A DNA stretch of 44,742 nucleotides from a virus. A program made the translations under genes and the position numbers. Below, piece by piece: positions 3,557 to 41,986 of this stretch. Location: IMG/VR virus record IMGVR_UViG_3300037474_000089; one strand, written 5' to 3'. The notes under the pieces are model-generated. The model saw only the letters and a list, made by a program, of their open reading frames with translations. It did not search any database and had not been told where the DNA came from. Positions within the stretch are counted from its first letter, which is position 1. Each line of letters opens with the position of its first letter.

Positions 3557-5075
3557 TCTCTAATTCTTCTTGATAATCTTCATCTGGCTCAAATCCTTCT
3601 TCATGTACTAATCCATTATACCCAGAGTCCGGGTCATTTATTATTCTTTTTCTTTCATCTTCTCCATTTATTGCCCCGCTGTTAACCAGAACTTGGCCGG
3701 TTTCAGCTTTTGCTTTATTAACTAAAGCTTGCTCTTCTTCTGTCATTGCATCCAGTTTAGTCCACATGATATGGGTATCAACTGGTTCAATTCCCAAACT
3801 TGGGGCAATCTCGGAGTGCATTAATAATAAATGATGTCTTTGAACTAAAGCTGTTGCAGATTCTTGCAAAGTTTCCAAAAACTCATGATAGCTTGATTCT
3901 TCATGCTCACCAGTTGCGTTAAACCCTTTTGGGCTAGTGCCTAATAATTTGGCAGCCGGTACGTTGGAAGCCGCCGCGACTATTTGATATTGAGTCATTA
4001 TCACTGCATCTAATTCAGCTAATGAAACATCAAATTGCTGGTATTCTTCTGTTTCATCAATTGCAAAAATCCCATAGTTATCTTGGATTTCCGTATTGCA
4101 TTGCATTCTTTTCTGAAAGTTCCCTATGTTAGCTAAGGCTTGACTCATGTCTGTTTTTATAACTTTCATCCTTTTTGTCATTGCTAACATTGGTGCTTCA
4201 TTTGCGGTACGCTCTGCCGCGTATACTCTTTCATATATCTTCTGTGGGATTGGCACGCCGCCGTACATGTAAGTAGGTTTTAAAATATCTGAAAGTTCTT
4301 CTGTTTTATAAATAATCAAGTGGCTTCTATGAATTAAAGTTCCGTTTATCTGCCACCAGGTTGGTTCATAAAAATATTCGCTCGCTGGATTACCAGCAGC
4401 CTCATCATCTAATAAAAATGACATCCAGTAAGGGTCAATTTGGGAAATACCCTTATATGAACCAGGAGTAACCCCATCTATATTAAAAGGCTTGTAATAG
4501 TATTCGGGGTCATCAGAATCAACTATGAACATTGCGACCCTAATACCAAAAACTCTTCCCATTTGAAGGAATTGCACGAGATTGTGATTAAGATTATATT
4601 TTAAATCTCCATCTCTGAAAGCATTGATTACTTCTGGATCAAGTTCTTCACCATCATTAGAAGTTGTTTCATAACCTTTTCTTATGGCATCTTGAGCGGG
4701 CATTAAGCAAGCTTTACTAATAAGCCAATGCTGAGCAAGCAACGCGGCATTTTGATATCCAATAAATCCTTGAGATGCGTACCACAGAAGAACAGATTCT
4801 GACATTCCGGTAGCATTACTGACCGATTTAAAAGAACCTATCGCTGAATCTGTAACATTTTTAGCTAAAGTTTTAGCGGAGTCCATAGCGACAGTGGTAG
4901 AGGCTTTTATATTTTTTTGGTTCAAAGGGGTAAATGTTTTGCTCAATAGCCCTTCTATTTCCATTTTTCTAGAAAGATCATCTTTGGTAAAATCAGTGGT
5001 GAAAATCTTCCTTTCTGGTTTCTTATCTTCCACTGGTTTATTCTTTTTTCTAAAAATATTTTTAAGGAATTGCAT
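3549..5075 (-). CDS. Portal protein (DUF1073-like)
   Basis: 508-aa ORF immediately after terL with a 14-nt overlap, and an acidic C-terminus. Size and synteny are typical of a portal. Confidence 0.8.
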
Positions 5076-6690
5076 CGAACATACCTCCGCCTCTTTTTTT
5101 CGATGGTGAAAAAGCTATCATAACAGCATCTGCAAGATTTGGCGATGCCACTCCATCTGGAGTTTTGTCAACGATAATTTTTCCGACGTTATTTTGTTTA
5201 TAGGTTGGTCTTGATAATTCAATAGTCAACTTAGTAAGTTCTGGTAATTCTTTAGGTATACTTATGATATTATCGGGATCATATTCTGTCCCTTCAGTTA
5301 CTGCACGATGTGTATTTTGGAATCTTAATCTTAGCGACCACCACGCTTGTGCTTTTGCATTAGCGAAGAAGTCAAAATTAGTTCGGCCCTTCCCTGGGCC
5401 CCGAGCTTGTCCTTGTTTCAAATATGGGTCTTTATCTGGGTCGACAACTTCTCCAGACCCTCTGAAACCATTGAAGCGTATTTCTGATAGTTTTTGATTA
5501 TCTCGTCTTGCGTTAATAACTCTAGCGTCTCCTCTAACACCGGCACCCAGACCGTCTGCGTCATATAACACGCTAGCATAATCCAGAATATCGCATAAAG
5601 TAAAAACTTTTTCAACACTTTTGAATATGTCTTCGCCTTTTCCAGACCATGACTCAATATATTCGAGTAGTATTCCAAACCTGCCGCAGAAAGCATTTTT
5701 ATCTTTTCCTTCATCAGCAACGTCCATCCCAGCAATTCTAATGCCGGACGGTACTATATTTAACTTCTTATGGGCATCGATAGCGGATTGTACCCATGAA
5801 CTAGGAATGAGCACTCCTTCGATTGAAGCAGAATAGTCTAAATCTATCTCTTGTGCAATTACTACTGGATCATCGAGTTGCTCGCATATTCTTTTGTACC
5901 AAGCATCATTTTTGCGAGGATCATCTCTCCAATGCAAAGTGAATACTGATACTTTTCCAGACCATCTTTTTTGAGCAAAAGGGTTATTCATGCCTCTGGG
6001 GGTGCTGATATCAATCCTGCAATTCGTGGTGTTAGATAAAGATGCTTCAACGGAATTTGGTCTTGGCAACCAAGCCGCCTCATCTACAAAATAAATAGCC
6101 CGTCGATCTCCTCGTCCAATACCGTCGCCCGCTTCACCTGACATAATTGCATTCGTGCCAGGAAATGAAATCCTCATGTGTGCGCAATGCTTTCTCTTAT
6201 CCCATCCGTTCTTAAATTCTGGAGGAAGAAGGTTTATGAACTGTCGTGCTTTTTCGAAGATAGATTTAGGGTCGCCACGTTGATCTACATATTCTTCTTT
6301 TCTGCTTCCGAAACCAATTGCCATGCCGTCGTAGAATAAGCACATGGTACAAGCGAAAGCCACTGAGAGCCAGCTAAGCCCCATATCTCGGCTCTTATCG
6401 CTAATTCCTCTCTCTCCTCCTTTCCATTTCTCCATTGCCCACTGCACCCATTCTTCTTGTTTAGGGAATAATAGAAACGGCACATTAGCAGGAAGTCCTC
6501 TTTCGACATTTCTTGGGTCGCTAGTGCACCCCCAATCGATTATAAATTGAGAAGGATTTTCTTTGTAGAATAGTTTTAAAGCAGATAGTGATTCTGGTTT
6601 CTTACGAAGATTATCAAGGCATTCCAATCTATGCTGAAATACCTTGATGTAATCTGGGTTTTTGAAATCAAACTCAAAAGGGATTGGCAT
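5062..6690 (-). CDS. terL: Terminase large subunit
   Basis: 542 aa. The N-terminal ATPase region contains [13 protein letters not shown] and [13 protein letters not shown], followed by a C-terminal nuclease region. It lies upstream of the portal gene. Confidence 0.88.
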
Positions 6691-6905
6691 TACTCAGCCT
6701 TATCAGCTTCCTCTTTTGCTTTTTGTTCAGCTTCAAGTTTTTCTCTTTGTAACTTAGCATGAGAATCTTGAATAGAGGAATTCAATTTACTACGCACGGA
6801 GTCTACATACTTTTGCGGCAAATTGATGCTAGCTTCGTTTATTAATGTTCCGATTTCTTGCAATAAGCTAAATTTAAGTTCAACAATAAAATCATTATTA
6901 TCCAT
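6690..6905 (-). CDS. Small coiled-coil protein translationally coupled to terL; possible packaging accessory or small terminase
   Basis: Its TAA stop shares one base with the terL ATG (TAATG at 6688-6692). RBS is GAGGAAAAT. The C-terminus is Lys/Glu-rich. Confidence 0.5.
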
Positions 6906-6936
6906 ATTTTCCTCGAAAATAGTTATTTATACACCT

Positions 6937-6965
6937 ATTATATACCATCTATAGATTAGAGTCTA
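6937..6965 (-). promoter_or_regulatory. Sigma70-like promoter for the packaging/head operon (TAGACT-17-TATAAT)
   Basis: On the minus strand the -35 is 6965-6960 and the -10 is 6942-6937. It lies just after the stop of the upstream fibre-cassette ORF. Confidence 0.4.
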
Positions 6966-7484
6966 CTAATAAACTTCAAGTATTGAAGAAATTGAAGTTA
7001 CGCCTGTTCCTGAAGCCATCAAACGATAAGTAGCTCCGGCTGGAACAAAAAAACTCAAAGTGTTAGATGCTCCCGATAAGGCCAATGCTCCTAACCCCCA
7101 TTGAGCGATTGTCACGTACCCGGAACCAGTGTCGACTTGAGCCGTAATAAGACTGCTTTGTAATACAGTAATAGAAATACCAACAAGGGCATTGACATGG
7201 GAATCCTTACTGACACTTGGAATACGCGGAGAATTAAATGCGGGGCTACTAACTGAATGAATAGTTTTATTTGCTGGGGGTGCACCACTGAGTGTAGCCC
7301 AATACATCCACTCTAAATCAGTATTATCGCTATTTGGAGCTGAGGTACAAAACCAAAGAGTATTATTTACATAATTTCTCCAAAATATACCATATTGTAT
7401 AATACCATCCCACGGTTCTGAAGCACCTGGATTATGGTCTGCCGTTAAACCGCCACTGTACCAATCGTATGTTGGGTTAGCCAT
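6966..7484 (-). CDS. Fibre-cassette protein, unknown (172 aa), possibly receptor-binding/adhesin
   Basis: Last ORF of the fibre cassette. It is Trp/Asn-rich at the N-terminus and Ser/Gly/Thr-rich in the C-terminal half. Confidence 0.4.
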   Translation of the reverse strand: MANPTYDWYSGGLTADHNPGASEPWDGIIQYGIFWRNYVNNTLWFCTSAPNSDNTDLEWMYWATLSGAPPANKTIHSVSSPAFNSPRIPSVSKDSHVNALVGISITVLQSSLITAQVDTGSGYVTIAQWGLGALALSGASNTLSFFVPAGATYRLMASGTGVTSISSILEVY

Positions 7485-7496
7485 TTTTTAAATCCT

Positions 7497-7961
7497 CTAT
7501 CCTATGTATCTAACAAAAAACCAACTGATGTAAGGCGCATTGCCCCCCGCAATTCCTACGGAGGCCGTACTTCCATTATTCAATTGGGCTGACATACTCA
7601 AAGTGTCTCCTGCCGCGGCAGTAACTACATTCATTCCATTTGTGCAAAAAGTATTGCTGAGTGTTTTAGAAGCGGTTGTTGCATATTCAGATATTCGATA
7701 CGCAAATCCACTTTGATTTAAAGTTGCAAGATTTCCATTTGCGCCATTTATTATGGTGGTATATTTAAAAGAGCCGCAAAGTAAGTAATTTCCGGCTACT
7801 GGAACTGTATATAAACCTGTTGCTGTATTGTAACCAGACCCAAATAAAACAGTGTCAAATTTAATGACATATGTTGTCCCATTTCCAGTCACGTTTGATA
7901 CGGGCGTATTTAAATAAGCAAACATTGCCGGGACTGTATCCCTAATTAAAATACTTGTCAT
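7497..7961 (-). CDS. C1q/TNF-like jelly-roll domain protein, paralog 3
   Basis: I prefer the start MTSILIRD (ATG 7961). The stretch FAYLNTPVSNVTGNGTTYVIKFDTVLFGSGYNTATGLYTVPVAGNYLLCGSF ... AAGDTLSMS ... ISWFFVRYI follows the C1q globular-domain pattern F-x5-N-x4-Y-x6-F-x5-G-x-Y-x-F. Confidence 0.7.
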   Translation of the reverse strand: MTSILIRDTVPAMFAYLNTPVSNVTGNGTTYVIKFDTVLFGSGYNTATGLYTVPVAGNYLLCGSFKYTTIINGANGNLATLNQSGFAYRISEYATTASKTLSNTFCTNGMNVVTAAAGDTLSMSAQLNNGSTASVGIAGGNAPYISWFFVRYIG

Positions 7962-8398
7962 TAAAATAACCTCGTTGCTTGACACCATCCAAATACCCCT
8001 GCTACTTGGGTAGATCCTGATATCTGTAAAGTAACAGTAGCTGTATCGCCTGCTGCCATTGGCGCAATAACATATCCCGCTATAGATGAAACAACTGCCT
8101 GACTTCGTATTGCGCCGACATTATAATTAGCAAATGTAAATGTTCTTTGAGTAGTTACTAAATTACATATAGCATTTGTCATTGATGAATTCGTATTTGA
8201 AAAACTAGGGTAATTGCAAAATAAAAAGACTCCTGCAACAGTGCACGTAAATACTCCAGTTGCAATAACGATACCAGAACCCTGAGATAATGTATTGTAA
8301 ACATAAGTGTATACAGTACCATTCCCTGTAACGTTGGCTACACCAGATTGAACTACAACAAATCTTTGGGCAGTATCAGTGCTTACTATATTAGTCAT
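7961..8398 (-). CDS. C1q/TNF-like jelly-roll domain protein, paralog 2
   Basis: MTNIVSTD...ANVTGNGTVYTYVYNTLSQGSGIVIATGVFTCTVAGVFLFC...AAGDTATVTL. Its start overlaps the upstream stop as TAATG. Confidence 0.7.
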   Translation of the reverse strand: MTNIVSTDTAQRFVVVQSGVANVTGNGTVYTYVYNTLSQGSGIVIATGVFTCTVAGVFLFCNYPSFSNTNSSMTNAICNLVTTQRTFTFANYNVGAIRSQAVVSSIAGYVIAPMAAGDTATVTLQISGSTQVAGVFGWCQATRLF

Positions 8399-8847
8399 TA
8401 TGGTAGCCTCACTATTGATAAAGTGCTTAAAGTATCAAAACTTAATGTTTTTGTACTTCCACTTATCAGTATATTCCATTGAGCCGTATCATTAACCGCC
8501 ATTCTTACTGGTACAACACATGGTGTAAGGGTAGTGGAATTAGAGGGGTTACGGTAGTTACCTATTCTAAATTCGCACGTTTGAAAACTTCCCCCAGTTG
8601 CTACTAGGGTTGCAGTACAGAAAGTAAAAGAAGCAGTCAAATTGCTAATTTGGACTACTGGAGTAAATAAATAATCTCCAGCTACTGGACAAGTAAAAAC
8701 CCCTGTGCTCGTATTATATCCGCTACCATAAACTACGTTATTCCAAACCAAAGTGTAAACTGTTCCGTCTCCAGTAACGTTAGTTGCTGCAGATGTAAGT
8801 GTTGCAAGTAAACTAGTATTTGATGAACCATTTACAATATTAGTCAT
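8398..8847 (-). CDS. C1q/TNF-like jelly-roll domain protein, paralog 1
   Basis: I prefer the start MTNIVNGSS (ATG 8847-8845), which overlaps the fibre gene stop as TAATG. Sequence includes TNVTGDGTVYTLVWNNVVYGSGYNTSTGVFTCPVAGDYLF. Confidence 0.7.
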   Translation of the reverse strand: MTNIVNGSSNTSLLATLTSAATNVTGDGTVYTLVWNNVVYGSGYNTSTGVFTCPVAGDYLFTPVVQISNLTASFTFCTATLVATGGSFQTCEFRIGNYRNPSNSTTLTPCVVPVRMAVNDTAQWNILISGSTKTLSFDTLSTLSIVRLP

Positions 8848-12128: not shown

Positions 12129-12560
12129 CTAACTCCCTGTTGTCATTATCTGTTCGTATATCTTACCCGCTTCTACGGGATCAGTGGTAGTTATTTTTAA
12201 CTCAATGGGCGAATTTTTATCCGTTTTGATCTTTGCGTCAAGTTTTAAACTGCTTTCGGATAGCCATTTCGCCTTTCGTTCTAGATAAAACAATATGCAC
12301 TTAGTGTCGCCTTGTTCTACCTTTTCTAAAAACTTATTTACTACAAATTCTAATAGCTGACTCCTGCCTTTTTTTATTCTTTTACTTATCTCTGGGTATT
12401 TCTGTTTTGTATGATACCAACATGATTTTTTTACGCCAAAATAATCTCTTATCTGTTCCTGGGTAAACTGTTTTCTAGCCAATGACTCAACTTTGTCCAA
12501 AAACTCCTCAGTCATTTCTATTGCAGGTTTAGGACCAGATTTTTCTTTCTTCTTAGCCAT
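12129..12560 (-). CDS. HTH DNA-binding protein, terminase small subunit-like
   Basis: FTQEQIRDYFGVKKSCWYHTKQKYPEISKRIKKG...CILFYLERKAKW resembles small-terminase/gp3-type HTH proteins. It is the first gene of the late block and has an RBS AGGAGGA. Confidence 0.45.
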   Translation of the reverse strand: MAKKKEKSGPKPAIEMTEEFLDKVESLARKQFTQEQIRDYFGVKKSCWYHTKQKYPEISKRIKKGRSQLLEFVVNKFLEKVEQGDTKCILFYLERKAKWLSESSLKLDAKIKTDKNSPIELKITTTDPVEAGKIYEQIMTTGS

Positions 12561-12579
12561 GTTAAATCCTCCTGCCTAA

Positions 12580-12608
12580 ATTATACCCTTCCTTCCTCCT
12601 ACAGTAAA
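12580..12608 (-). promoter_or_regulatory. Sigma70-like promoter for the late block (TTTACT-17-TATAAT)
   Basis: On the minus strand the -35 is 12608-12603 and the -10 is 12585-12580, about 20 nt upstream of ATG 12560. Confidence 0.4.
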
Positions 12609-12614
12609 CACGTA

Positions 12615-12938
12615 CCCGAAGCAGTCGTAATCCCCGAACGTTTTTTGTTTAGTCCATTCGTTCGGTCTTATATCTATCTTATTGTTTTTATTAATAATAT
12701 TAATATATTGGACTGAAGGACTGAATGAATAACATTGCTCCCAGAAATCTATACATAGTATACATTTTATGGTATATTGTATAGCGTATACATGTACGTA
12801 TAACCATGTATAGATTTATGTAAAGGAGTTTTATGGATTTCGTTCGGATTTTGGTAATACAAATCGCTACAACCCACGTCTACCAAGGGATGCCCGAGAA
12901 CTGGAGCAAATTTTGTCCGTTCGGGCTTGTTCGGGCTT
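12615..12938. repeat. Repeat-dense intergenic hub with iteron-like CGTTCGG copies and several other short repeats
   Basis: CGTTCGG(G) occurs at 12632-12640 (inverted), 12659-12665, 12841-12847 and 12918-12925. GTTCGGGCTT is a tandem pair (12919-12928, 12929-12938). TATTAATA occurs twice (12689-12705), GGACTGAA twice (12710-12725), and TATACAT three times direct (12750, 12759, 12787) plus once inverted (12806-12812). Confidence 0.7.
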
Positions 12939-12978
12939 AAGTCCAAATGTTTGATGAATTAAAATGAGAGGAAACAAG

Positions 12979-13245
12979 ATGATATCAAAAGATTACGCCA
13001 TGTGCAATAAGTTAATTACTTACGATGATTGTCGTCCGTGCTACAGGAATCATCCGCCCCAGAGATATACTAAAACCGGAAAGTGTGTATATTGTCATCG
13101 TGAGAAAGCTAAAATAAACAGAAGGTCTCTCAATCAACATAAAGCTCACGAGCTTGGATTAGTCCAGATGGAGGTATTAGTACATCCAGACGATGTTGAA
13201 ACGGTGAAATCCCTGATTAAAGCTCTTAGAATTGACAGGATGTAG
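12979..13245 (+). CDS. Small Cys-rich (CxxC...CxxC) protein, unknown function
   Basis: I prefer ATG 12979, preceded by GAGAGGAAACAAG. The sequence contains CRPC...CVYC. The track ORF starts at 12964. Confidence 0.5.
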   Translation: MISKDYAMCNKLITYDDCRPCYRNHPPQRYTKTGKCVYCHREKAKINRRSLNQHKAHELGLVQMEVLVHPDDVETVKSLIKALRIDRM

Positions 13246-13277
13246 TATACTAAACTATCAATCATAGGAGGTTTACC

Positions 13278-13454
13278 ATGAAAGACCGACCCAAGAAAGA
13301 TAGCCAAAAGTTTTTTAAAGAAATAAAACAGGAGCATCCAGAAGTCTCTATGATACAAACTACAACGGTCACCGTGAACATTGATCAAAAGGATGATTGC
13401 ATGACCGGATGTTTCAAAGCGTTATCTGATTGTTTTAAACGCAAAAGTAGTTGA
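13278..13454 (+). CDS. Hypothetical 58-aa protein
   Basis: Strong RBS ATAGGAGGT 8 nt upstream. Sequence begins MKDRPKKDSQKFFKEIKQEHPE. Its TGA stop lies inside the -35 box of promoter P1. It falls below the 60-aa threshold of the ORF track. Confidence 0.5.
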   Translation: MKDRPKKDSQKFFKEIKQEHPEVSMIQTTTVTVNIDQKDDCMTGCFKALSDCFKRKSS

Positions 13455-13479
13455 CATAATATAGATAATATTCTATAGT
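13443..13479 (+). promoter_or_regulatory. Promoter P1: conserved cassette AAAAGTAGTTGACA-N3-TATAGA-N6-TC-TATAGT
   Basis: TTGACA (13451-13456), a 17-nt spacer, then TATAGT (13474-13479). It has the same 37-bp architecture as 28439-28475 (+) and 14834-14798 (-). Confidence 0.65.
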
Positions 13480-13486
13480 TTGTTAT

Positions 13487-13630
13487 ATGGTGATTTCGGC
13501 GTGGACAGTGACACGTATTGCGTATGGTTACGCGTTTACAGTGAGACTTCGAATTCTCACCGGGCGGCGGCCAGGATTATGGTTCGATTCCAGACGAAGG
13601 CGAGCCGGTGCAATTCCGGCAGATCACCTC
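13487..13630 (+). ncRNA. Unclassified structured RNA / 5' leader with tRNA-like T-loop hairpins (about 140 nt)
   Basis: It starts about 7 nt after the P1 -10 box. A closing helix pairs GGTGATTT (13489-96) with AGATCACC (13621-28). Internal hairpins lie at 13500-15, 13520-33, 13541-60 (loop CTTCGAAT), 13578-94 (TATGG-TTCGATT-CCAGA) and 13604-20 (GCCGG-TGCAATT-CCGGC). By my count 46 of 74 nt in 13555-13628 are G/C, in an AT-rich genome. Confidence 0.5.
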
Positions 13631-13649
13631 TAACTATAAAGGAGTTGGT

Positions 13650-14063
13650 ATGTTTCTTAAAACACTAGCAGTTGGCATAATGTCTATTATTACAACAAAT
13701 ATTGCGTTAGCATTAGACAATGTACATATAGCCACATGCGCTATGGATGTAATCTTATCTCAACATTCTTTAATGCCTACGGATTTTTTCAGCAAGCATG
13801 CGTTCTCTATCACTAACAATTCTCCAATACCTATGAACTACAAGATTGTATATCAGCATGAAGTAATGAATATGTTTTCTGAAAAGAAAGCTGTTAACAT
13901 CGTGGTCAACCCTGGCCAAACGGTGATGGAAGTTAAAACCTTCTCAAATAAGAAAGTGTGGGAAAATAACGGTCAGTTTCAAACTCGTGCAATGACCATC
14001 ATATTCTTGGATGGTAAACGAGTTGATAGCTGCGCTAATAACAATTATGCGTACATTACATGA
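13650..14063 (+). CDS. Secreted protein with signal peptide (137 aa), unknown function
   Basis: RBS AAAGGAG. N-terminus is MFLKTLAVGIMSIITTNIALA|LDN. The track ORF 13608.. begins upstream, inside the RNA element. Confidence 0.6.
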   Translation: MFLKTLAVGIMSIITTNIALALDNVHIATCAMDVILSQHSLMPTDFFSKHAFSITNNSPIPMNYKIVYQHEVMNMFSEKKAVNIVVNPGQTVMEVKTFSNKKVWENNGQFQTRAMTIIFLDGKRVDSCANNNYAYIT

Positions 14064-14296
14064 AAAAATACTCAACTAAAGAAGTAGCAAAGATTCTGGG
14101 GGTGTGTCACCAAAGGATTTTTGCAAAAATTAAACAAGGTCACTTCCCCGGATCGCACAATTGCGAATGCGGCCGTAGTATACTAATACCTGAACATGAC
14201 GTTCTTAACCAACCTAAGAAAAGGAATGGCAGGTATGAAAAAACTAATGGCGGTAATCCTCCTAACGATTGCGATAGCGGCACAAGCAGGAAGTAG
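14060..14296 (+). CDS. Excisionase/AlpA/MerR-type HTH DNA-binding protein
   Basis: YSTKEVAKILGVCHQRIFAKIKQGHFPG....ILIPEHDV. Its start overlaps the upstream stop as ATGA. Confidence 0.6.
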   Translation: MKKYSTKEVAKILGVCHQRIFAKIKQGHFPGSHNCECGRSILIPEHDVLNQPKKRNGRYEKTNGGNPPNDCDSGTSRK

Positions 14297-14633
14297 TGGC
14301 TCCTGCGGCACAAAAATAACCTGTAAGCCTGGTAATGAAGCTAAATGCGAAATGACCAACGGCAGCAGCGATATCTTCATGCAAGTATCTTACCTAAACT
14401 TATCTGAAAAAACAGATTTAGCTCTGAGCGATTTATATGCGTACACGATTAAAAATAACGGGGTGATAGATTGTTATTACTCTTTGGCTTTTAATCCAGA
14501 TGATGTGATAGTGTTCAAAACAGTACCTCATCACAATGTTGTACCAAGGGATGCTTCAGAGTGGGTAAAGAGATATGATACTTTGTATTGCGATCCCGAT
14601 ATCCACTCTTGCTTGATTTACATTTTATATTAA
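14235..14633 (+). CDS. Secreted Cys-rich protein with signal peptide (132 aa), unknown function
   Basis: MKKLMAVILLTIAIAAQA|GSSGSC. The start is uncertain (the track ORF starts at 14196). It overlaps the HTH gene by about 60 nt. Confidence 0.5.
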   Translation: MKKLMAVILLTIAIAAQAGSSGSCGTKITCKPGNEAKCEMTNGSSDIFMQVSYLNLSEKTDLALSDLYAYTIKNNGVIDCYYSLAFNPDDVIVFKTVPHHNVVPRDASEWVKRYDTLYCDPDIHSCLIYILY

Positions 14634-14730
14634 GTAAGTTAATGCATTTAAAAACAGGGTGACCGATACACCAAAACAAAAGAAGGTTAGTATTTGACAA
14701 TTGGTCATCCATGCTTTAAAACGGTAGGTC

Positions 14731-14797
14731 AGTGAGGTCCGGTTAACTCTGATAGCTTGTGGCATAGCTTAAGTCCCTTTAATTGATTGACCTCACT
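14731..14797. repeat. Inverted repeat AGTGAGGTC ... GACCTCACT (9 bp arms, 49-nt loop) between convergent gene blocks
   Basis: The arms lie at 14731-14739 and 14789-14797. The loop contains ATAGCTT twice. On the minus strand the hairpin is followed by ...CCGTTTT. Confidence 0.6.
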
Positions 14798-14834
14798 ACT
14801 GTAGAACATCATCTATAGCTTGTCAACTACTTTT
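14798..14834 (-). promoter_or_regulatory. Promoter P3: third copy of the conserved cassette (AAAAGTAGTTGACA-AGC-TATAGA-TGATGT-TC-TACAGT)
   Basis: On the minus strand the -35 is 14826-14821 and the -10 is 14803-14798. It fires into the hairpin region and runs antisense to the 13650-14633 operon. Confidence 0.55.
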
Positions 14835-15025
14835 AATGAATCGATTGCTCTACACAGTTGGTCATGTACATGGTCAAAACAATCTGTACATATATCTTCG
14901 TATTTGAACCTTTCTTTGAATACTGCAACTACTGACATTGCAGCGCCCGTTTTGGGCGCATACAATAGTTTTGCATCTCTAGATTCTTTCTTACATAGAT
15001 CACACTTGTAAATGGTTATCTTCAT
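14813..15025 (-). CDS. Small Cys-rich (zinc-finger-like) protein, 70 aa
   Basis: CDLC...CTDC. ATGA-type coupling to the primase-helicase gene. The C-terminus LKVVDKL is encoded by promoter cassette P3. Confidence 0.5.
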   Translation of the reverse strand: MKITIYKCDLCKKESRDAKLLYAPKTGAAMSVVAVFKERFKYEDICTDCFDHVHDQLCRAIDSLKVVDKL

Positions 15026-17346
15026 GCTTGCGAGTCCTTATATGCTTTAACGATTTCTTTGGGATCTTTCAGTTCACAATCTTCATGGTTGGTTCGTATG
15101 TACAGTCTTGGCTTCGTACTTTCTCCTGCCATAACCGTAGGAGTCCTACCTTCTTTAAGATGCGGGTGCCAGTCGTATCCAATTGACTTAAGAAGTTCAC
15201 GTCTCTTATTACGTGCAATCCTCTTATCAGCTCCAATATCTTTAAGAAGTGCATCAAATGCGGTAGAGCAAATCCATCCTCCTTTAAAACCAACACGTTC
15301 GGATTCAACCGCTTCAAGAATTTCATGCTCCACTCTACCAAATCCATGTTCGATTGCAGCTTCAGTACTTGAGGTTGACGGTGCGCGCGAGCATTTAAGA
15401 GGGTTAAATTCATCTTTAATAGGGTAAGAGAGTAAGAAGTCTGCAATGGCTGCGTATCCACCGTTCTTCGCCCAGTTATAGAGGTCAGGACAGTATGCAC
15501 CCATCATCCCATCGCGATGTAAATCTTCAACTGATTGTTGCGGCGTATAGAAGATCGCAAATCGTCGATCATCTTTAGACTTACGAAGAGCATCCTTATG
15601 GTTCGTGTTGATGATATAGTTGCAGCAAATGTCTTTCATGGTTTTCTTCTTGCCTTTGCCTTCGACCATTTGTCTCTCGAGGTCAAGCATTGGCTTTAGG
15701 GTTTCCATGATTTCAGCACGTGAATCAGGATAATAAGCGTCTTCAATTGATACAAATATGGCGCCATCTGCCCAATCGTTGAACCTACTAGCTATTTCAT
15801 CCGCGCGAGGAAACTGTGTATATCGATCGCCTATAATATAAGATATGACTCTTGAGAAGAAAGTCTTACCGTTCCCTTGGGTGCCTTGCAATACTATACA
15901 CCATTTAAACTTCTTACCTATAAACTGAACTAACGCTGCTAAATAGCTTAAAATAATATCTTGGTCGCGTTTATTAGGAAAAAGCTTTTCAACATGGTCT
16001 AAGAATAATGATACGTCCCCTTTCTGTCTAACGCACTGATAAGGCCAATATGTATTAACAACCAGTTCACCATCTTTATTGTATACGTGTCCAGATTCCA
16101 TATCCGGTTTGAATGTACAACTGTTCACTCTAGTAAACTTAACTGCTGTTGAAAGAGTGAAAGCTTCCCAAGCTTTATTGGTAGTCTTGGCATTCTCACC
16201 GCTAGTTACGAAAATATAACCGCCATACATTACATTGAACCGTTCTCTATCCAACAGATATCCCCCGGGGACAAGTATCATGTTTTCATGACATACGTAC
16301 ACGCACCCCCGAAAGTGCTCTAACTGCTCTTGAATGGTCATAAAACCGCTCCCACTCGTGCCAATTATTTGACTAGGAGTTTCAGTCTTGGTAACATTCT
16401 GTTTAGTTTGTTTCGAATAAACGTTTGAACACTTACCGCGGGCGCTCCTGATCGTTCGCGGTAAATAATCCTCGCGATCCCATTTGTCTCTAGCCAACTT
16501 TGATTGTCTCATTAAGCTCAACATTCGCTCTGCGTTACATCCAGTCCAGAAAGCAAGATGCTGCGCAAGAGCTGCATCAGCACTAGATCGGTTATAAGTG
16601 TCAGAATCATGTGGATATGACTTAGCTAATACTTCTTCATTGTTTTCCCAAAGATCAGCAAAAGTCGCGCCGTCGTGCCCAAATTTCGATCTGTTACTTT
16701 TAGAAGCTAACGCCATACGGATTAGTTCATTGTCATCTATGGGCCCGTTATATTCGGGCAAAGGTTCTGTAGACCACCACTCTTTCTCCGTGGGAGTTGA
16801 AATAGTTGCTTGCAAATAGGAGGTAGATATTTCCTTAAGTGCTTCGGTACAATCTATGCTGGCGTCACCTGCTGCATGTATGCCAGTTAGCGCAACAAAA
16901 CGTTTGGATGTATAAAACTCTAAACCGAGTTTATCATTTCTGCACCCGTGGTTGAAGTCACTGCATTTACCTATAATGTGCAAACCTTTACCGGATGCTG
17001 AAACTTCCACAGCGGCACCAGCTAGTTTCTGTAAAAGAGTTTTTGACAAATCAGACCATCCAGCTTCAGGTTCGTAACAAGAATCGATGTCTAATAAGAA
17101 GAATGGATCGGACTCAGTAAGAACGAATCCGACTCCATAAGACTCACCCAAACGCTTTGAGGCTGACGAAGCTGAATCAAAATCAGTCCAAATGGTTGAA
17201 TCATGAGCATCCCAAGTCTGTCCATTCTGATAGTTAACAGGTCTTTTGATCTTCTTGTTAACATTAGTTGGATTATTGGTTATTGAATAAACTATAAATT
17301 GATGATAATTTTTAAGTGCATAAAACGCCGTTGGTAATATATCCAT
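15022..17346 (-). CDS. Bifunctional primase-polymerase (AEP) / SF3 helicase replication protein
   Basis: N-terminal motifs FFLLDIDSC and SASGKGLHII are AEP prim-pol motifs. The C-terminal Walker A is VLQGTQGNGKTFF. Length is 774 aa. Confidence 0.85.
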   Translation of the reverse strand: MDILPTAFYALKNYHQFIVYSITNNPTNVNKKIKRPVNYQNGQTWDAHDSTIWTDFDSASSASKRLGESYGVGFVLTESDPFFLLDIDSCYEPEAGWSDLSKTLLQKLAGAAVEVSASGKGLHIIGKCSDFNHGCRNDKLGLEFYTSKRFVALTGIHAAGDASIDCTEALKEISTSYLQATISTPTEKEWWSTEPLPEYNGPIDDNELIRMALASKSNRSKFGHDGATFADLWENNEEVLAKSYPHDSDTYNRSSADAALAQHLAFWTGCNAERMLSLMRQSKLARDKWDREDYLPRTIRSARGKCSNVYSKQTKQNVTKTETPSQIIGTSGSGFMTIQEQLEHFRGCVYVCHENMILVPGGYLLDRERFNVMYGGYIFVTSGENAKTTNKAWEAFTLSTAVKFTRVNSCTFKPDMESGHVYNKDGELVVNTYWPYQCVRQKGDVSLFLDHVEKLFPNKRDQDIILSYLAALVQFIGKKFKWCIVLQGTQGNGKTFFSRVISYIIGDRYTQFPRADEIASRFNDWADGAIFVSIEDAYYPDSRAEIMETLKPMLDLERQMVEGKGKKKTMKDICCNYIINTNHKDALRKSKDDRRFAIFYTPQQSVEDLHRDGMMGAYCPDLYNWAKNGGYAAIADFLLSYPIKDEFNPLKCSRAPSTSSTEAAIEHGFGRVEHEILEAVESERVGFKGGWICSTAFDALLKDIGADKRIARNKRRELLKSIGYDWHPHLKEGRTPTVMAGESTKPRLYIRTNHEDCELKDPKEIVKAYKDSQA

Positions 17347-17369: not shown

Positions 17370-17675
17370 TTATTTAGATAGGTACAGTAAGACCTTCTCC
17401 TTAAGCTGAGGAGGTAGCCGTTTCGTAAGAGGGTCTTTTCGTACCAAGCCTTGTGCAATTATTTCCAATACTTCGGTTCTGATAGCCTCTTTAAGCACCA
17501 AGCGTCTGAGGTTATCCATAGATTGAAAATAACGAGTCACTAAACCATACGATACTCCTGCTCGTTCTGCAACACCATCCCTCGTTATGTGGCTATATCC
17601 TATTTCTTTTGACAGTTCTACAGCTTCTGTTAATAATTCGTTCTTACGATCATCAGGTAGTTTTCGCTCTCTCAT
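17370..17675 (-). CDS. Mini TetR-family HTH protein (DNA-binding domain only, 101 aa)
   Basis: I prefer the start MRERKLP (ATG 17675, RBS GGAGAAC). RKNELLTEAVELSKEIGYSHITRDGVAERAGVSYGLVTRYFQSMDNLRRLVL matches the TetR_N pattern. There is no ligand-binding domain. Confidence 0.6.
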   Translation of the reverse strand: MRERKLPDDRKNELLTEAVELSKEIGYSHITRDGVAERAGVSYGLVTRYFQSMDNLRRLVLKEAIRTEVLEIIAQGLVRKDPLTKRLPPQLKEKVLLYLSK

Positions 17676-17862
17676 TTTGTTCTCCACAGTCTTTGCATAC
17701 TGTACGTATACCTTCATTAGATTTATAAACCTTAGAACGTGTATGTTTACATCCGTTCTTTTTAGCATGACATTGTTTGCACAATATTTGCTTTTCATGA
17801 ATCATGATCTTTAATCCATCTAATCTGCCGCAATCCCTGCACATCATTTTAATCATCTCCAT
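17653..17862 (-). CDS. Zinc-ribbon protein (four CxxC pairs), 69 aa
   Basis: CRDC...CKQC...CKDC. It overlaps the TetR-like gene by 23 nt. Confidence 0.5.
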   Translation of the reverse strand: MEMIKMMCRDCGRLDGLKIMIHEKQILCKQCHAKKNGCKHTRSKVYKSNEGIRTVCKDCGEQNERAKTT

Positions 17863-27547: not shown

Positions 27548-27714
27548 TTATATATCTAGTGAGTTTACGCATAGCAGAAAGAAATGAAATTATAGTAGAA
27601 GCTTTTCTTTCGAAAGTAAAAGCGGAAAATCGAGTTAATCAATTCAATTCAGGTATGGGCTGTTCAAGCTCATTTCCAAAAGCGCAGTATGTAGAAGTCG
27701 AGGTAATAGAATGA
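27544..27714 (+). CDS. Hypothetical 56-aa protein
   Basis: Start MIIYLVSL at an ATGA overlap. Coupled to the methyltransferase gene. Confidence 0.4.
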   Translation: MIIYLVSLRIAERNEIIVEAFLSKVKAENRVNQFNSGMGCSSSFPKAQYVEVEVIE

Positions 27715-28460
27715 AACACCTAGATATGTTTAGTGGAATAGGAGGTTTTGCATTAGCGGCACAATGGGCTGGAATTGATACTATTGGGTTTAGTGAGATA
27801 GACAAATTCTGCTGCAAAGTTTTAAAGAAGCATTGGCCTCACATCACTAACTACGGCGACATACGTCAAATAGAGGAACTTCCTCATGTAGATTTGATGA
27901 CAGGCGGATTTCCATGTCAACCATTCAGTAGTGCAGGAAAGAAAAGGGGAAAGGAAGATGAACGATATTTGTGGCCACAATTCTACAGAGCAATCAAACT
28001 CTCTAAGCCAACTTGGATTGTTATCGAAAATGTTAAGGGAGCAGTTGACCTGGTACTCGAAACAATCTGTTCTGATTTGGAAGCACAAGATTACGAAGTG
28101 CAATCGCTCATTATACCAGCTTGTGGCACCGATGCGCCGCATAGACGGGAAAGGTTATGGATTGTTGCCCACTCCAACAGCAAGCGAGTTAACTTCAGGT
28201 TCAGTGATTGGGAAGAACGACGTGTACAAAAAGACCCGTACGGGGACATGGCGCAAATACAATCAGAATGGGAAGAACTCAAGCCTAACTCTTGGTCGTC
28301 TTATGATTTTGAGCAATACCTATCCTTTAACGCCTTATCTCATGGAGATGGTTATGGGATACCCAATAGGTTGGACAGAGGTAAATCTTTAGGCAACTCT
28401 ATAGTACCTCAAGTAATATTTCCTATATTAAGATTGATAAAAGTAGTTGACAATCTATAG
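27711..28460 (+). CDS. DNA (cytosine-5)-methyltransferase (compact, 249 aa). See the finding on methyltransferase-like motifs in the +1 frame.
   Basis: Motif I is DMFSGIGGF, IV is GGFPCQPFS, VI is ENVKG, VIII is PHRRERLWIVA and X is LGNSIVPQV. Confidence 0.88.
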   Translation: MKHLDMFSGIGGFALAAQWAGIDTIGFSEIDKFCCKVLKKHWPHITNYGDIRQIEELPHVDLMTGGFPCQPFSSAGKKRGKEDERYLWPQFYRAIKLSKPTWIVIENVKGAVDLVLETICSDLEAQDYEVQSLIIPACGTDAPHRRERLWIVAHSNSKRVNFRFSDWEERRVQKDPYGDMAQIQSEWEELKPNSWSSYDFEQYLSFNALSHGDGYGIPNRLDRGKSLGNSIVPQVIFPILRLIKVVDNL

Positions 28461-29031: not shown

Positions 29032-29868
29032 ATGTTTAAAAAAGCTATAATCGGAGTTTCCTCTGTTTTAGTATGTGCGACAATGACAGCTTGTACAAAA
29101 GTACCAGCGGGTCATAAAGGCGTTATTGTCAATTTGTATGGTTCTGATAAAGGAGTTTCAGAAGAAACGGTTGGTGTGGGTAGATATTACTTAGGTTGGA
29201 ATAAAGAATTATATTTGTTTCCAGTTTTTCTTCAAAATTACACGTGGACTGGCGAAGAACAAATAACCATGCAAACTTCAGAAGGACTTTCTATATCGGC
29301 AGATGTTGGTGTTACTTATAATATTAGACCAGAAAATGTCAGCAAAGTTTTTCAAAAATACAGATTAGGTATTGACGAAATAACCCATACCTTTCTCCAC
29401 AACATGGTTAGAGACGCAATGAATCAAGTGTCTTCTACTATGACAGTCGAACAACTTTATGGTGAAAAGAAAGAGCAATTTATCATAAAAGTAAACAACA
29501 TTGTAAAAGAAGAATGTTTGGACGTTGGAATTGACATGGACAAAATCTATCTTATTGGTTCCTTTAAATTACCAGACAATGTCGTAAATTCAATAAACGC
29601 TAAAATTCAAGCAAGTCAAAATGCAATGAAAGTAGAAAATGAAGTTGCCACAGCAAAAGCAGAAGCTTTAAAAACAGTGGTAGTAGCAGAAGCTGAAGCA
29701 CAACGTATTTTAATTGACGCTAAAGCTAGAGCCGAATCTAACAGATTACTATCTGAAAGTTTAACCCCCTCATTTATTCAATACCAAACATTGCTTAAAT
29801 GGGATGGTAAATTACCTCAGATTACAGGTTCTTCCACTATACCTATGATCAACTTAAAGAGTAGTTAA
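29032..29868 (+). CDS. SPFH/Band-7 (prohibitin/HflC-like) lipoprotein
   Basis: Signal plus lipobox-like sequence VLVCATMTAC. SPFH core is VPAGHKGVIVNLYG...GLSISADVGVTYNI...VRDAMNQV, followed by a C-terminal coiled coil AEAEAQRILIDAKARAE. Confidence 0.8.
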   Translation: MFKKAIIGVSSVLVCATMTACTKVPAGHKGVIVNLYGSDKGVSEETVGVGRYYLGWNKELYLFPVFLQNYTWTGEEQITMQTSEGLSISADVGVTYNIRPENVSKVFQKYRLGIDEITHTFLHNMVRDAMNQVSSTMTVEQLYGEKKEQFIIKVNNIVKEECLDVGIDMDKIYLIGSFKLPDNVVNSINAKIQASQNAMKVENEVATAKAEALKTVVVAEAEAQRILIDAKARAESNRLLSESLTPSFIQYQTLLKWDGKLPQITGSSTIPMINLKSS

Positions 29869-40090: not shown

Positions 40091-41986
40091 TTAAATCAAT
40101 ACTTGTTGTCCGGTTATTAAATTAATATCATCGTCTTTACTATAGATCAATGTGTATTCTGCTTTGTATTCAGTCAAGTTGGTATTCGAGTTAACATAAG
40201 GAACGATAACACAGTTTACCCAGTAGCCAATCGTCTGTACTTGATACCATGCATTCGGATCATCAGCCGTAGAAGTAATGAATGCTTTTTGAGCAGCAGT
40301 CAAAGTCTTATTGGCACTAATCGTACCGTTATTAGTAGCTTCTTCTATAACAGACTGAAGAACCGCTAATATTTGACTTTTACCTTGCTCATTAGCCGGG
40401 ACTCTATTTTGCGTCAATAATAAATTCAATAACGCAGATTGCATTGCATCTTTTAACCACATTTCATTGGCATAAATATTTAAGAATTGTGGGGCACTAA
40501 CTGGTCCTTGCATAACGCCTCTTTGATAGAAAGCTAATAAAACACCAGCAGTTTGAGTAACCCCGTAATAGTTTATCTTTAGCCCATCATAAAAATTGGC
40601 GTCTGTATCAGTTGAAATACTAGGAGTCAAATTAGAGATCTGAAACATGTAATTTTGAACTGAATTTGGCTGTTCATAATTGGTAGCGGCCAATATCATC
40701 ATTGGGAATTGCTCTGGATATTCGGTTGCTACAGGAGCCAATGTAATTTGGGTACCAGCGAATCCATTCAGAACATTAGCATAAGAAATTGCCAATGTTT
40801 GATTAAGAACCGGCACGCAATAAATATAGCTTACATTTTGAGCAGCATTCCATTCTGCAACACTAACGATGTCATCTAAGCTAATAGCTTCAATGAATAA
40901 AAAAGAACCAAAATTATTAGAAGCTTGGGAAGAAGTGATCACGGAATCTAGAGGTGTTGGAGCCGTTAGCCCATTCATCCATACTAAAGTTGTACCGCTC
41001 ACCCATCCTAACAAGTTTCCTATTGGAGTACCAGCCGTTCCTTCTGCTACACTAATCACGACATCCGCAGCTTCTCCGCCTAGGAAATTAAAACTGCCTC
41101 TAGTCGTATCATAAGTTACTGTAGCTGATGTCCATTGTACGCCACCGGCGGTTACTGCTTGAATAGCGGATTGAATGGTTCCCGCGATGTTAGCTAAAGT
41201 TACATCTCCAGTAAAATCAATACCAGTAAGAGCTTGAGAAAAATCACCTATGGTTAAAGTAAAACTACCATCCGTAATAGGAGTGTACATCCCTGCTGTT
41301 TGTGATTGAATGTTGCCTAAGATTTGAGGAGGAGTAGCACCAATGCCATCAGAAACAATTAAAGTCGGGCCGGATATCCATCCTAATAATCCGCCAATAG
41401 GCTGACCAAAAGTTCCTTCAATTACTCTAATTACCGCAGGAGCACTATCATCTCCCCCTTGAATATTGAAGCTCCCTCGGACTGGATCGTACACAACTGT
41501 GGCGAGTGCCCATAAATTATCTAATGGAAATGCGGATTGAATAGCATTTTGTATACGAAGTGCTACATCGGAGAGACTGGTATCAGTCGTGAAATTGAAT
41601 GCAGAAAAAGAAACAGTGTGGGAACCGAGAGTTAAGCTCATTGTCCCGCCAGTAATAGTGTTATACGTACCCACTGATTGAGGCTGAATATTTCCGAATA
41701 TTTGAGGAAATGTAGCACCATCAGTATAACGAGCATAATCAATGGAAGGGGGCACTGTGCCATTTTTGCTAACCCAACCAAAATAATAAACTGCTCGTTT
41801 GTATTCATCAGAAGAGGTACCAAACCAACTTCCAACCTCAGAAGCGCTAGTGAAGGTAACAAAACCATTGGTGGGCACTAATTCATTTTGTGTGAAAATT
41901 CTACCAGTGAGACTTCTTCGGGGCACGGAAGAACCAGCGCCGACACTGGATATAATGTCTACATATCTAGTTATTGAAATTGCCAT
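40091..41986 (-). CDS. Tail sheath protein (DUF3383-like) with an internally duplicated insertion domain
   Basis: 631 aa. Supported by synteny. The duplicated segment is [28 protein letters not shown]... and [28 protein letters not shown].... Confidence 0.75.

Follow-up and report, generated by a model that had tools for sequence, protein, structure and literature searches.

An apparently undescribed family of tRNA-like RNAs in bacteriophages, with a conserved frame and a variable central domain

The viral record IMGVR_UViG_3300037474_000089 of IMG/VR comprises 44,742 nucleotides (nt) of DNA, and "the window" is used here for the whole of that stretch. On its plus strand, at positions 13489-13628, it encodes a small structured RNA that belongs to an apparently undescribed RNA family, widespread in phages. 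The family is real and its three core helices covary, the RNA is non-coding, and the genomic niche of the family is that of transfer RNA (tRNA) genes. The best explanation, which is favoured with modest confidence, is that these RNAs are tRNA mimics that are handled by the tRNA-processing enzymes of the host and that present a variable payload domain. The main rival is a purely cis-acting role, and it is weighed below together with several less probable accounts.

In the window, the RNA opens with the 5′ strand of its acceptor-like closing stem, termed P1, which reads GGTGATTT at 13489-13496 and contains the seven core nucleotides GTGATTT at 13490-13496. A 2-nt linker, CG (13497-13498), stands in the place of tRNA residues 8-9 and is CG in 82 of 89 loop-anchored members of the family. 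Next comes a D-like arm (13499-13516), in which the stem G-CGTG/CACG-T carries an invariant 8-nt loop, GACAGTGA, at 13504-13511. In A1, an alignment of 56 members, each residue of this loop is either invariant or conserved at 90% or more, and tandem G-A pairs may extend the stem into the loop, leaving a CAGU tetraloop. The variable central domain, or putative payload, fills 13517-13602; three hairpins are predicted there by single-sequence folding, namely GCGTA-TGGT-TACGC (13520-13533), GTGAGA-CTTCGAAT-TCTCAC (13541-13560), and TATGG-TTCGATT-CCAGA (13578-13594), the last being a look-alike of a canonical T-arm with the loop TTCGATT. An invariant A at 13603 (column A114 in A1, with NA before the stem in 88 of 89 members) directly precedes a T-like arm at 13604-13620, where a stem of 5 base pairs (bp), GCCGG/CCGGC, bears the 7-nt T-loop TGCAATT. 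This loop keeps U54, C56, R57, and A58 and has a G at 55. The 3′ strand of P1, AGATCAC plus C13628 (13621-13628), adjoins the T stem with no spacer, giving a predicted coaxial stack of 7 or 8 plus 5 bp, in which G13489, at position -1, pairs with C13628 as the eighth pair of P1.

Much of this architecture had been drawn in a first-pass annotation. The closing helix that it proposed, 8 bp including one G-U between GGTGATTT and AGATCACC (13621-13628), was found in place by a script check, and the five hairpins that it listed, including CGTG/CACG at 13500-13515, are all present. The five do not share one status in the comparison with relatives, in which the first and last prove to be the conserved core and the three in the middle are specific to the window copy. 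The observation that the last hairpin abuts the closing helix as a T-arm abuts an acceptor stem was borne out as a tRNA-like feature. A high G+C content had also been noted, and the count of 46 G/C among the 74 bases of 13555-13628 is correct; the RNA as a whole has 55.7% G+C vs 38.8% for the whole window. Single-sequence folding of the window RNA is unremarkable (z = -1.08), so the case for more than chance rests on comparison.

The two terminal hairpins recur in many other genomes. At least 119 IMG/VR contigs contain the 17-mer of the last hairpin (GCCGGTGCAATTCCGGC), and the 18-mer of the first (GGCGTGGACAGTGACACG) is found in 100 IMG/VR contigs plus 21 GTDB genome contigs. More than 200 IMG/VR phage contigs match one of these two core motifs, as do seven contigs of bacterial metagenome-assembled or other genomes, which represent six phyla, and the window is an exact match to the family motifs at 13497-13516 and 13603-13620. 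Most matches to the 17-mer share a single architecture, consisting of a free 7-nt strand, the CG linker, the hairpin G-CGTG-GACAGTGA-CACG-C, an unrelated stretch of 30-333 nt, an A, a 5-bp stem with the loop TGCAATT, and, with no spacer, the complement of the 5′ strand. Written in RNA letters, the loop GACAGUGA is invariant in the D-like 5-bp stem and the T-loop UGCAAUU in the last 5-bp stem. A total of 117 distinct members were extracted; since extraction required pairing, a test anchored on the loops only was added.

A covariance model, R1, was built from the relatives. Its only match in the window is at 13490-13627, with 71 bits (E = 1.8e-15). Matches of 49-72 bits to R1 occur in contigs of Planctomycetota, Chloroflexota, Acidobacteriota, Bacteroidota, Nitrospirota, and Legionella, and the hosts, judged from contigs of metagenome-assembled and other genomes, appear to span these same groups. 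A BLAST search against 50,697 GenBank phages returned no member, and a later attempt gave chance matches of 16-23 nt in real coding sequences, which R1 rejects. The 30 primase-relative loci of the window phage also hold no member.

Some individual loci deserve mention. A weak partial match to R1 (15.6 bits, E = 0.32) that contains GGGGACAaaGTGAC, the only match among the primase-relative loci, was seen in L019 (643-709) and L025 (7382-7448); it is probably due to chance, and in L025 it sits within a primase match (6001-8568), the match in L019 likewise lying inside the primase gene. Locus L045 has four R1 matches within 1 kb (6646-7570) that form a divergent cluster, with 59 and 62 bits on the minus strand and 30 and 54 bits on the plus strand. 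A few members have insertions in loops that are invariant elsewhere, for example GGACAGTGAGGAATTATGTTCCAAGACACG in the D-like loop of L137, TGCTAATT in L217, and TGAGCCAATT in L244, and the T-like loops of the latter two are 8-10 nt long. Such insertions could show positions that are tolerant of change.

Covariation was the check that the first-pass annotation had named for its helices, and compensatory changes are found in three of them, the core helices. In A1, 99.3% of cells are paired and both sides have changed in 15 of the 17 pairs, these double changes affecting all seven pairs of P1, four of five in the D-like stem, and four of five in the T-like stem. The covariation score is 0.64 vs 0.17 for shuffled alignments, none of 500 shuffles reaches the observed values, and controls slid along A1 are paired in only 30-41% of cells. 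RNAalifold, unaided, predicts the same three helices. When the loci are anchored by their loops (n = 97, with 49 distinct P1 sequences), at least six of the seven P1 pairs are in register in 92% of them, as compared with 0-3% at shifts of ±1 to 3. The T stem also covaries in the set selected by the 5′ motif only (GCAGG/CCTGC, GCCAG/CTGGC, GTCGG/CCGAC, GCACG/CGTGC, AATGG/CCATT, and others), while the loop stays TGCAATT. In the window, comparative support, as read from these sequences, is limited to the closing helix and to the first and last hairpins. Of note is that A1 contains 23 G-U cells vs 7 non-pairs on the sense strand, which points to an RNA made from this strand.

That the region instead holds a gene for a small protein, either the open reading frame (ORF) at 13487-13633 (48 aa) or that at 13480-13668 (62 aa), is hardly credible. 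Both frames are open in the window, and an ATG lies directly 5′ of P1 in 51 of the 117 members, the window included; however, the frame of this ATG is open in only 5 of those 51, and no Shine-Dalgarno (SD) sequence lies upstream of 13487. The lengths of the members are evenly spread modulo 3 (44/38/35), and stops occur in all three frames in 85 of 117. A coding signal is thus rejected by stops and lengths alike, and the original description of a non-coding, structured, promoter-proximal RNA stands.

The frame resembles a tRNA in several respects. Its geometry is tRNA-like, with a stack of 7 or 8 plus 5 bp, a 2-nt linker, and a T-loop of the form U-N-C-R-A, and an eighth pair (-1:+73) is possible in 84% of members, being G-1:C73 in 57%, including G13489:C13628 of the window. 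A tRNA gene on the same strand lies within 60 nt of 8 of the 117 members. For instance, the member in L238 is located between tRNA-Pro and tRNA-Met in an array of seven tRNAs, with gaps of 7 and 10 nt, and in L067 the order is member, tRNA-Gln, member. NCCA is encoded right after the stem in 19 of 117 members (16%). The shortest member (L201), with 80 nt plus ACCA, takes a cloverleaf fold at an ensemble frequency of 64% (z = -2.8). Placement in tRNA arrays, the NCCA of some members, and the cloverleaf of the shortest strengthen the idea of a tRNA mimic, which was among the identities first offered for the window RNA.

This likeness could be taken literally, in which case the RNA would be a non-canonical tRNA that is aminoacylated and linked to translation, either as a derivative of tRNA-Sec or allo-tRNAs or as a charged molecule akin to transfer-messenger RNA (tmRNA). 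The possible 8-bp acceptor, the encoded NCCA, and the cloverleaf ending in ACCA are all features that such a molecule would have. Even the unusual T-loop has a parallel, as the non-proteinogenic tRNA-Gly of Staphylococcus carries U-G-C in place of T-Psi-C. The long D-like stem on a tetraloop and the long extra region likewise recall tRNA-Sec and allo-tRNAs (PMC5389517). The reading is nevertheless improbable. No member has a standard anticodon arm with a 5-bp stem and a 7-nt loop, from which the 8-nt loop CUUCGAAU on a 6-bp stem in the window differs; there is no G3-U70 pair and no tag frame; and inserts that are unrelated in both sequence and length are hard to fit to decoding or to a single synthetase identity. 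ARAGORN and the tRNA and tmRNA models of Rfam fail as well. Rfam scans at gathering and permissive thresholds of the window, the shortest member, and 12 related loci returned true tRNAs only, Rfam 15 gave no match in window 13300-13800 even at E<=10, and ARAGORN called zero tRNA or tmRNA genes in the window, all of which agrees with the earlier judgement that the RNA fits no named class.

Within the frame, the insert is almost never the same twice. The 117 members yield 106 unrelated insert clusters, of which 98 are singletons. Frame and insert also occur in changing combinations, since the P1 sequence GCAATCG is joined to 13 unrelated inserts and one insert cluster is found with four different P1 sequences. 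For the window insert, searches of IMG/VR and of the JGI metagenomes gave no homologue; the latter yielded one member (L254) of similar architecture and unrelated sequence. The three middle hairpins of the window are therefore without comparative support. The same applies to a switch suggested in the first-pass annotation, in which CACCGG (13558-13563) would pair alternatively with CCGGTG (13605-13610); both sequences exist, but the pairing involves the copy-specific insert. An additional T-arm-like hairpin is present in 8 of 117 members against 3.65 expected from shuffles, which is a weak excess. As a separate observation, the 12-mer CAGTGAGACTTC of the variable domain (13538-13549) recurs once in the window, at 41905-41916 in the tail-sheath gene region, which is near chance.

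In the explanation favoured here, the loops GACAGUGA and UGCAAUU would form a tRNA-type elbow, and the RNA would therefore be handled by host tRNA-processing enzymes. RNase P would act on the 5′ side and tRNA 3′-end trimming on the 3′ side, with the CCA either encoded or added. A stable small RNA would in this way be excised from the operon transcript, and in the window the same cut would give the downstream mRNA its 5′ end. As a scaffold, the conserved frame would provide for processing and stability, and possibly for docking; the effector would be the variable middle, which might act in trans as a decoy or as a binding module. A broader version of this idea, offered as a tentative possibility, is a modular RNA platform in phages of many phyla, in which a universal elbow frame displays rapidly exchanged, trans-acting payloads. 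The frame might then be read by machinery that all bacteria share, be it RNase P, the CCA-adding enzyme, or some other factor that binds the elbow, and the payloads might divert host defence or RNA-binding proteins as decoys or sponges, or might be specificity modules. If true, such a platform could hint at what the small stable RNAs of phage tRNA clusters do, species 1 and 2 of T4 among them.

Several findings weigh against tRNA mimicry and the steps of processing, expression, and binding that we infer for it. In 84% of members the CCA is not encoded, and the window copy, in which TCTAAC comes after P1, is one of them; about 86% of members lie away from tRNA genes. The D-like loop is without the G18-G19 consensus and the T-loop has G55, so the elbow is hypothetical, and position -1 is usually a G paired with +73, which is atypical of RNase P substrates except tRNA-His. 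No member is recognised by the Rfam tRNA model or by ARAGORN (the window and 54 loci for ARAGORN). The family also has no conserved protein partner: its neighbours are ordinary early genes (Sak4-like, SSB-like, DnaD-like, exonuclease, DUF3310), none of them universal, and the commonest, Sak4-like, is found at 16 of 117 loci. Antisense matches of at least 11 nt to the window RNA are absent from the phage, the longest being 10 nt and falling within the conserved T-loop. Perfect complementarity of at least 9 nt between the insert and the 400 nt downstream is not enriched over permuted pairs, a test outside of which short imperfect pairings fall. The nearest relative of the window phage manages without this RNA. 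Finally, a mechanically called ORF start (>=30 aa) lies at most 80 nt downstream in 41 of 54 members, mostly within about 30 nt, which keeps a cis role on the downstream gene among the accounts to be weighed.

According to that account, the fold would be a cis-acting 5′ leader, or a kind of punctuation, which directs a cut or caps the 5′ end and thereby sets the stability or translation of the mRNA, the excised RNA itself being without a role. The layout of the window would suit it. A sigma-70-type promoter, which the first-pass annotation had put at 13451-13479 on the plus strand, is present there, with TTGACA as the -35 box (13451-13456), a 17-nt spacer, and TATAGT as the -10 box (13474-13479); it agrees with the consensus at 11 of 12 positions and is the top promoter-like site in 12500-15100 (about 2.6 kb). 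The end of the -10 box is 10 nt from the closing stem, transcription probably starts at about 13485-13487, and the RNA begins some 3 nt past this predicted start. On the other side, P1 ends 11 nt before the SD sequence of an ORF of 137 aa. These elements lie outside the RNA (13640-14063, plus strand), with the ribosome-binding site AAGGAG at 13640-13645 and the ATG at 13650, and the ORF, which has a signal-peptide-like N-terminus, is probably co-transcribed with the RNA. Elsewhere in the family, a consensus-like promoter that ends within 20 nt of P1 was seen in five to six of 114 scanned members, against a background of about one per 10-nt bin. Such a leader would have precedents, as RNase P processes polycistronic mRNAs, and the C4 RNA of phage P1 and the CI RNA of phage P4 are cut from operon leaders. 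The window RNA has no C4 match in Rfam, and the complementarity searches described above gave no sign in favour of an antisense role of the C4/CI type.

A leader of this kind is nevertheless unlikely. The downstream ORFs of the members are unrelated to one another, and some members are followed not by an ORF but by tRNA genes or by another member. In addition, the window has no expression platform, that is, neither a terminator nor a platform that would sequester the SD sequence, and the suggestion that the RNA is a riboswitch or leader of the secreted-protein operon is not supported, on these same grounds. For a processing signal alone, there would be no need of loops that stay invariant over six host phyla or of a structured insert of 30-333 nt. 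In L001 (primase 77% identical), the closest relative of the window phage, the same promoter drives the same operon with no such RNA between them. Both the promoter and the downstream ORF are kept in L001, and the place of the tRNA-like RNA is taken there by another leader, about 85 nt long (reverse complement 4704-4790, which corresponds to window 13482-13649), so the window element behaves as an exchangeable cassette. The L001 leader has a closing stem, GGGCAGG/CCTGTCC, and two small hairpins.

Cassette-like presence in one phage and not in a close relative might also be expected of an element that works as DNA and has no function as RNA. It could be a site of recombination or attachment, a signal for single-strand initiation, or a tRNA pseudogene in decay. 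The shuffling of core and insert among members would fit this, as would the frequent location of members in regions of replication and recombination genes. Such an element would not, however, account for compensatory changes with G-U pairs on one strand only, nor for an orientation that is always that of the adjacent tRNAs and ORFs. The invariance of the loops across host phyla indicates selection, not decay. Moreover, no integrase was found among the window ORFs scanned, which were those near the RNA and the largest ones, and neither a reverse transcriptase nor Ro60 was found among them. A purely DNA-level role is accordingly considered very improbable, and tRNA mimicry is retained as the preferred reading.

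The phage itself is a myovirus-like genome of about 45 kb with genes for terminase, portal, sheath, baseplate, PolA, a primase-polymerase, and a DEAD-box helicase. The operon downstream of the RNA (13650-14633) encodes two small signal-peptide-like proteins, namely the 137-aa product of 13650-14063 and that of 14196-14633, which has a probable internal start at MKKLMAV; neither has a match among Pfam or PHROG families. An HTH_17/excisionase-like DNA-binding protein (14060-14296) is encoded between the two, overlapping the second. Accessory genes at 17370-17798, 27711-28460, and 29032-29868 encode a TetR-N-domain protein beside the primase, a C-5 cytosine DNA methylase, and an SPFH/Band-7 (flotillin-like) protein.

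Members of the family are sometimes accompanied by other small RNA-like units. A second, unclassified unit of about 110 nt lies beside members of the GCAATCG subgroup; it starts with ATG followed by GCCGACGATACT, ends with GGGAAAATAGGCCACCA followed by GTTTATG, and is found upstream or downstream of members in L125, L145, L188, L037, L045, L076, L220, L137, and L197. Locus L082 has additional units, each about 70 nt long and with CCAGTTTA(T/C)G at the end. It thus seems that arrays in some phages combine small structured RNAs of several kinds, with a "(C)CA GTTTATG" spacer between them.

A description of the family was not found in Rfam 15 or, by keywords and sequence motif, in the searchable literature, although the 10,006 viral candidate RNAs catalogued in PMC10690425 may include it without a name. 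None of the known classes compared accommodates the RNA, and the window copy has all three features of the R1 family. What emerges is a covarying RNA family in hundreds of uncultivated phage genomes, from at least six host phyla, that Rfam 15 lacks and tRNA finders do not see. An invariant tRNA-like frame around a middle that is almost never repeated suggests a general phage route for making and stabilising diverse small RNAs by way of host tRNA processing. The family is ready for annotation with a covariance model, and it offers a tractable handle on the purpose of the stable RNAs other than tRNAs in phage tRNA clusters.

Canonical tRNAs (RF00005) are similar in their 7-bp acceptor-like stem stacked on a 5-bp T stem, their 2-nt linker to the D-like arm, and their T-loop residues U54, C56, R57, and A58, and the two kinds of RNA meet in some phage tRNA arrays; some members also carry NCCA. 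In contrast to tRNAs, the family has a domain of 30-333 nt in place of the anticodon arm, the loop GACAGUGA where tRNAs have G18-G19, a G at 55, and a stem that is usually 8 bp. The tRNA-Sec and allo-tRNAs, some of which were found in phages and metagenomes, come closer in having an 8-bp acceptor, a long D stem on a tetraloop, and a long extra region (PMC5389517). They decode, however, and possess anticodon arms and branches of 8/4, 9/3, or 8/5 bp, whereas the insert of the family is not a single variable arm. The tRNA-like domain of tmRNA, which phages can encode, also has an acceptor stem and a T-arm that enclose a large insertion unlike a tRNA. This family differs in being much smaller, in having a real D-like stem, and in having no G3-U70, tag ORF, or conserved pseudoknots; in the window, pair 3-70 is U-A, and there is neither an ARAGORN call nor an Rfam match for tmRNA.

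Species 1 and species 2 of phage T4 (rnaC and rnaD) share the niche of the family, being stable RNAs of about 120-140 nt that lie beside tRNAs in a phage tRNA cluster, and rnaC ends in a T-arm. They are without the GACAGUGA and UGCAAUU motifs, so the analogy is one of niche and size only. Homology is not supported, as R1 finds nothing in T4 66000-76000 and no shared motifs were seen by eye. Another possible relation, suggested in the first-pass annotation, was to the Y RNAs. The YrlA RNA of Mycobacterium smegmatis is a tRNA mimic with D- and T-like arms that is cut by RNase P and receives CCA (PMC4201824), and it is thus a precedent for the handling proposed here. Its topology is permuted relative to the family, as the ends of the RNA form the Ro-binding stem and the acceptor-like stem is internal, and its gene adjoins rsr (Ro60). 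With this difference, no Ro60 in the scanned window ORFs or in the neighbour clusters, and no YrlA match in Rfam, the identification as a Y-RNA-like molecule is not supported.

Two further candidates were weighed. The UG27 non-coding RNA arrays (bioRxiv 10.64898/2026.09.22.753630) are phage-encoded, with units of about 150 nt that have a conserved fold and diverse sequence, are sometimes arrayed, and are gained and lost. Each unit is, however, a single long hairpin that carries AUCN7UANAG and UUYA motifs as well as a pseudoknot, and it needs an adjacent reverse transcriptase plus two accessory proteins. The RNA described here has a three-way fold, these motifs are absent from it (AUCN7UANAG as judged by reading the sequence), and no reverse transcriptase is encoded in the scanned window ORFs or in recurrent neighbour clusters, so UG27 was rejected. 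AcrIIIA1 was considered from the literature and likewise set aside. Membership in the class of riboswitches and cis-regulatory leaders is not supported, given the unrelated downstream ORFs, the lack of a terminator-like site, and the members that precede tRNAs.

The proposed design has a counterpart in the laboratory. In the engineered "tRNA scaffold" of Ponchon and Dardel, a foreign RNA reportedly replaces the anticodon arm, and the cell is said to process and stabilise the resulting RNA. The same logic would apply to the phage family, the scaffold itself being an artificial construct. If the modular platform outlined above is true, these phage RNAs would be the natural counterpart of the engineered scaffold.

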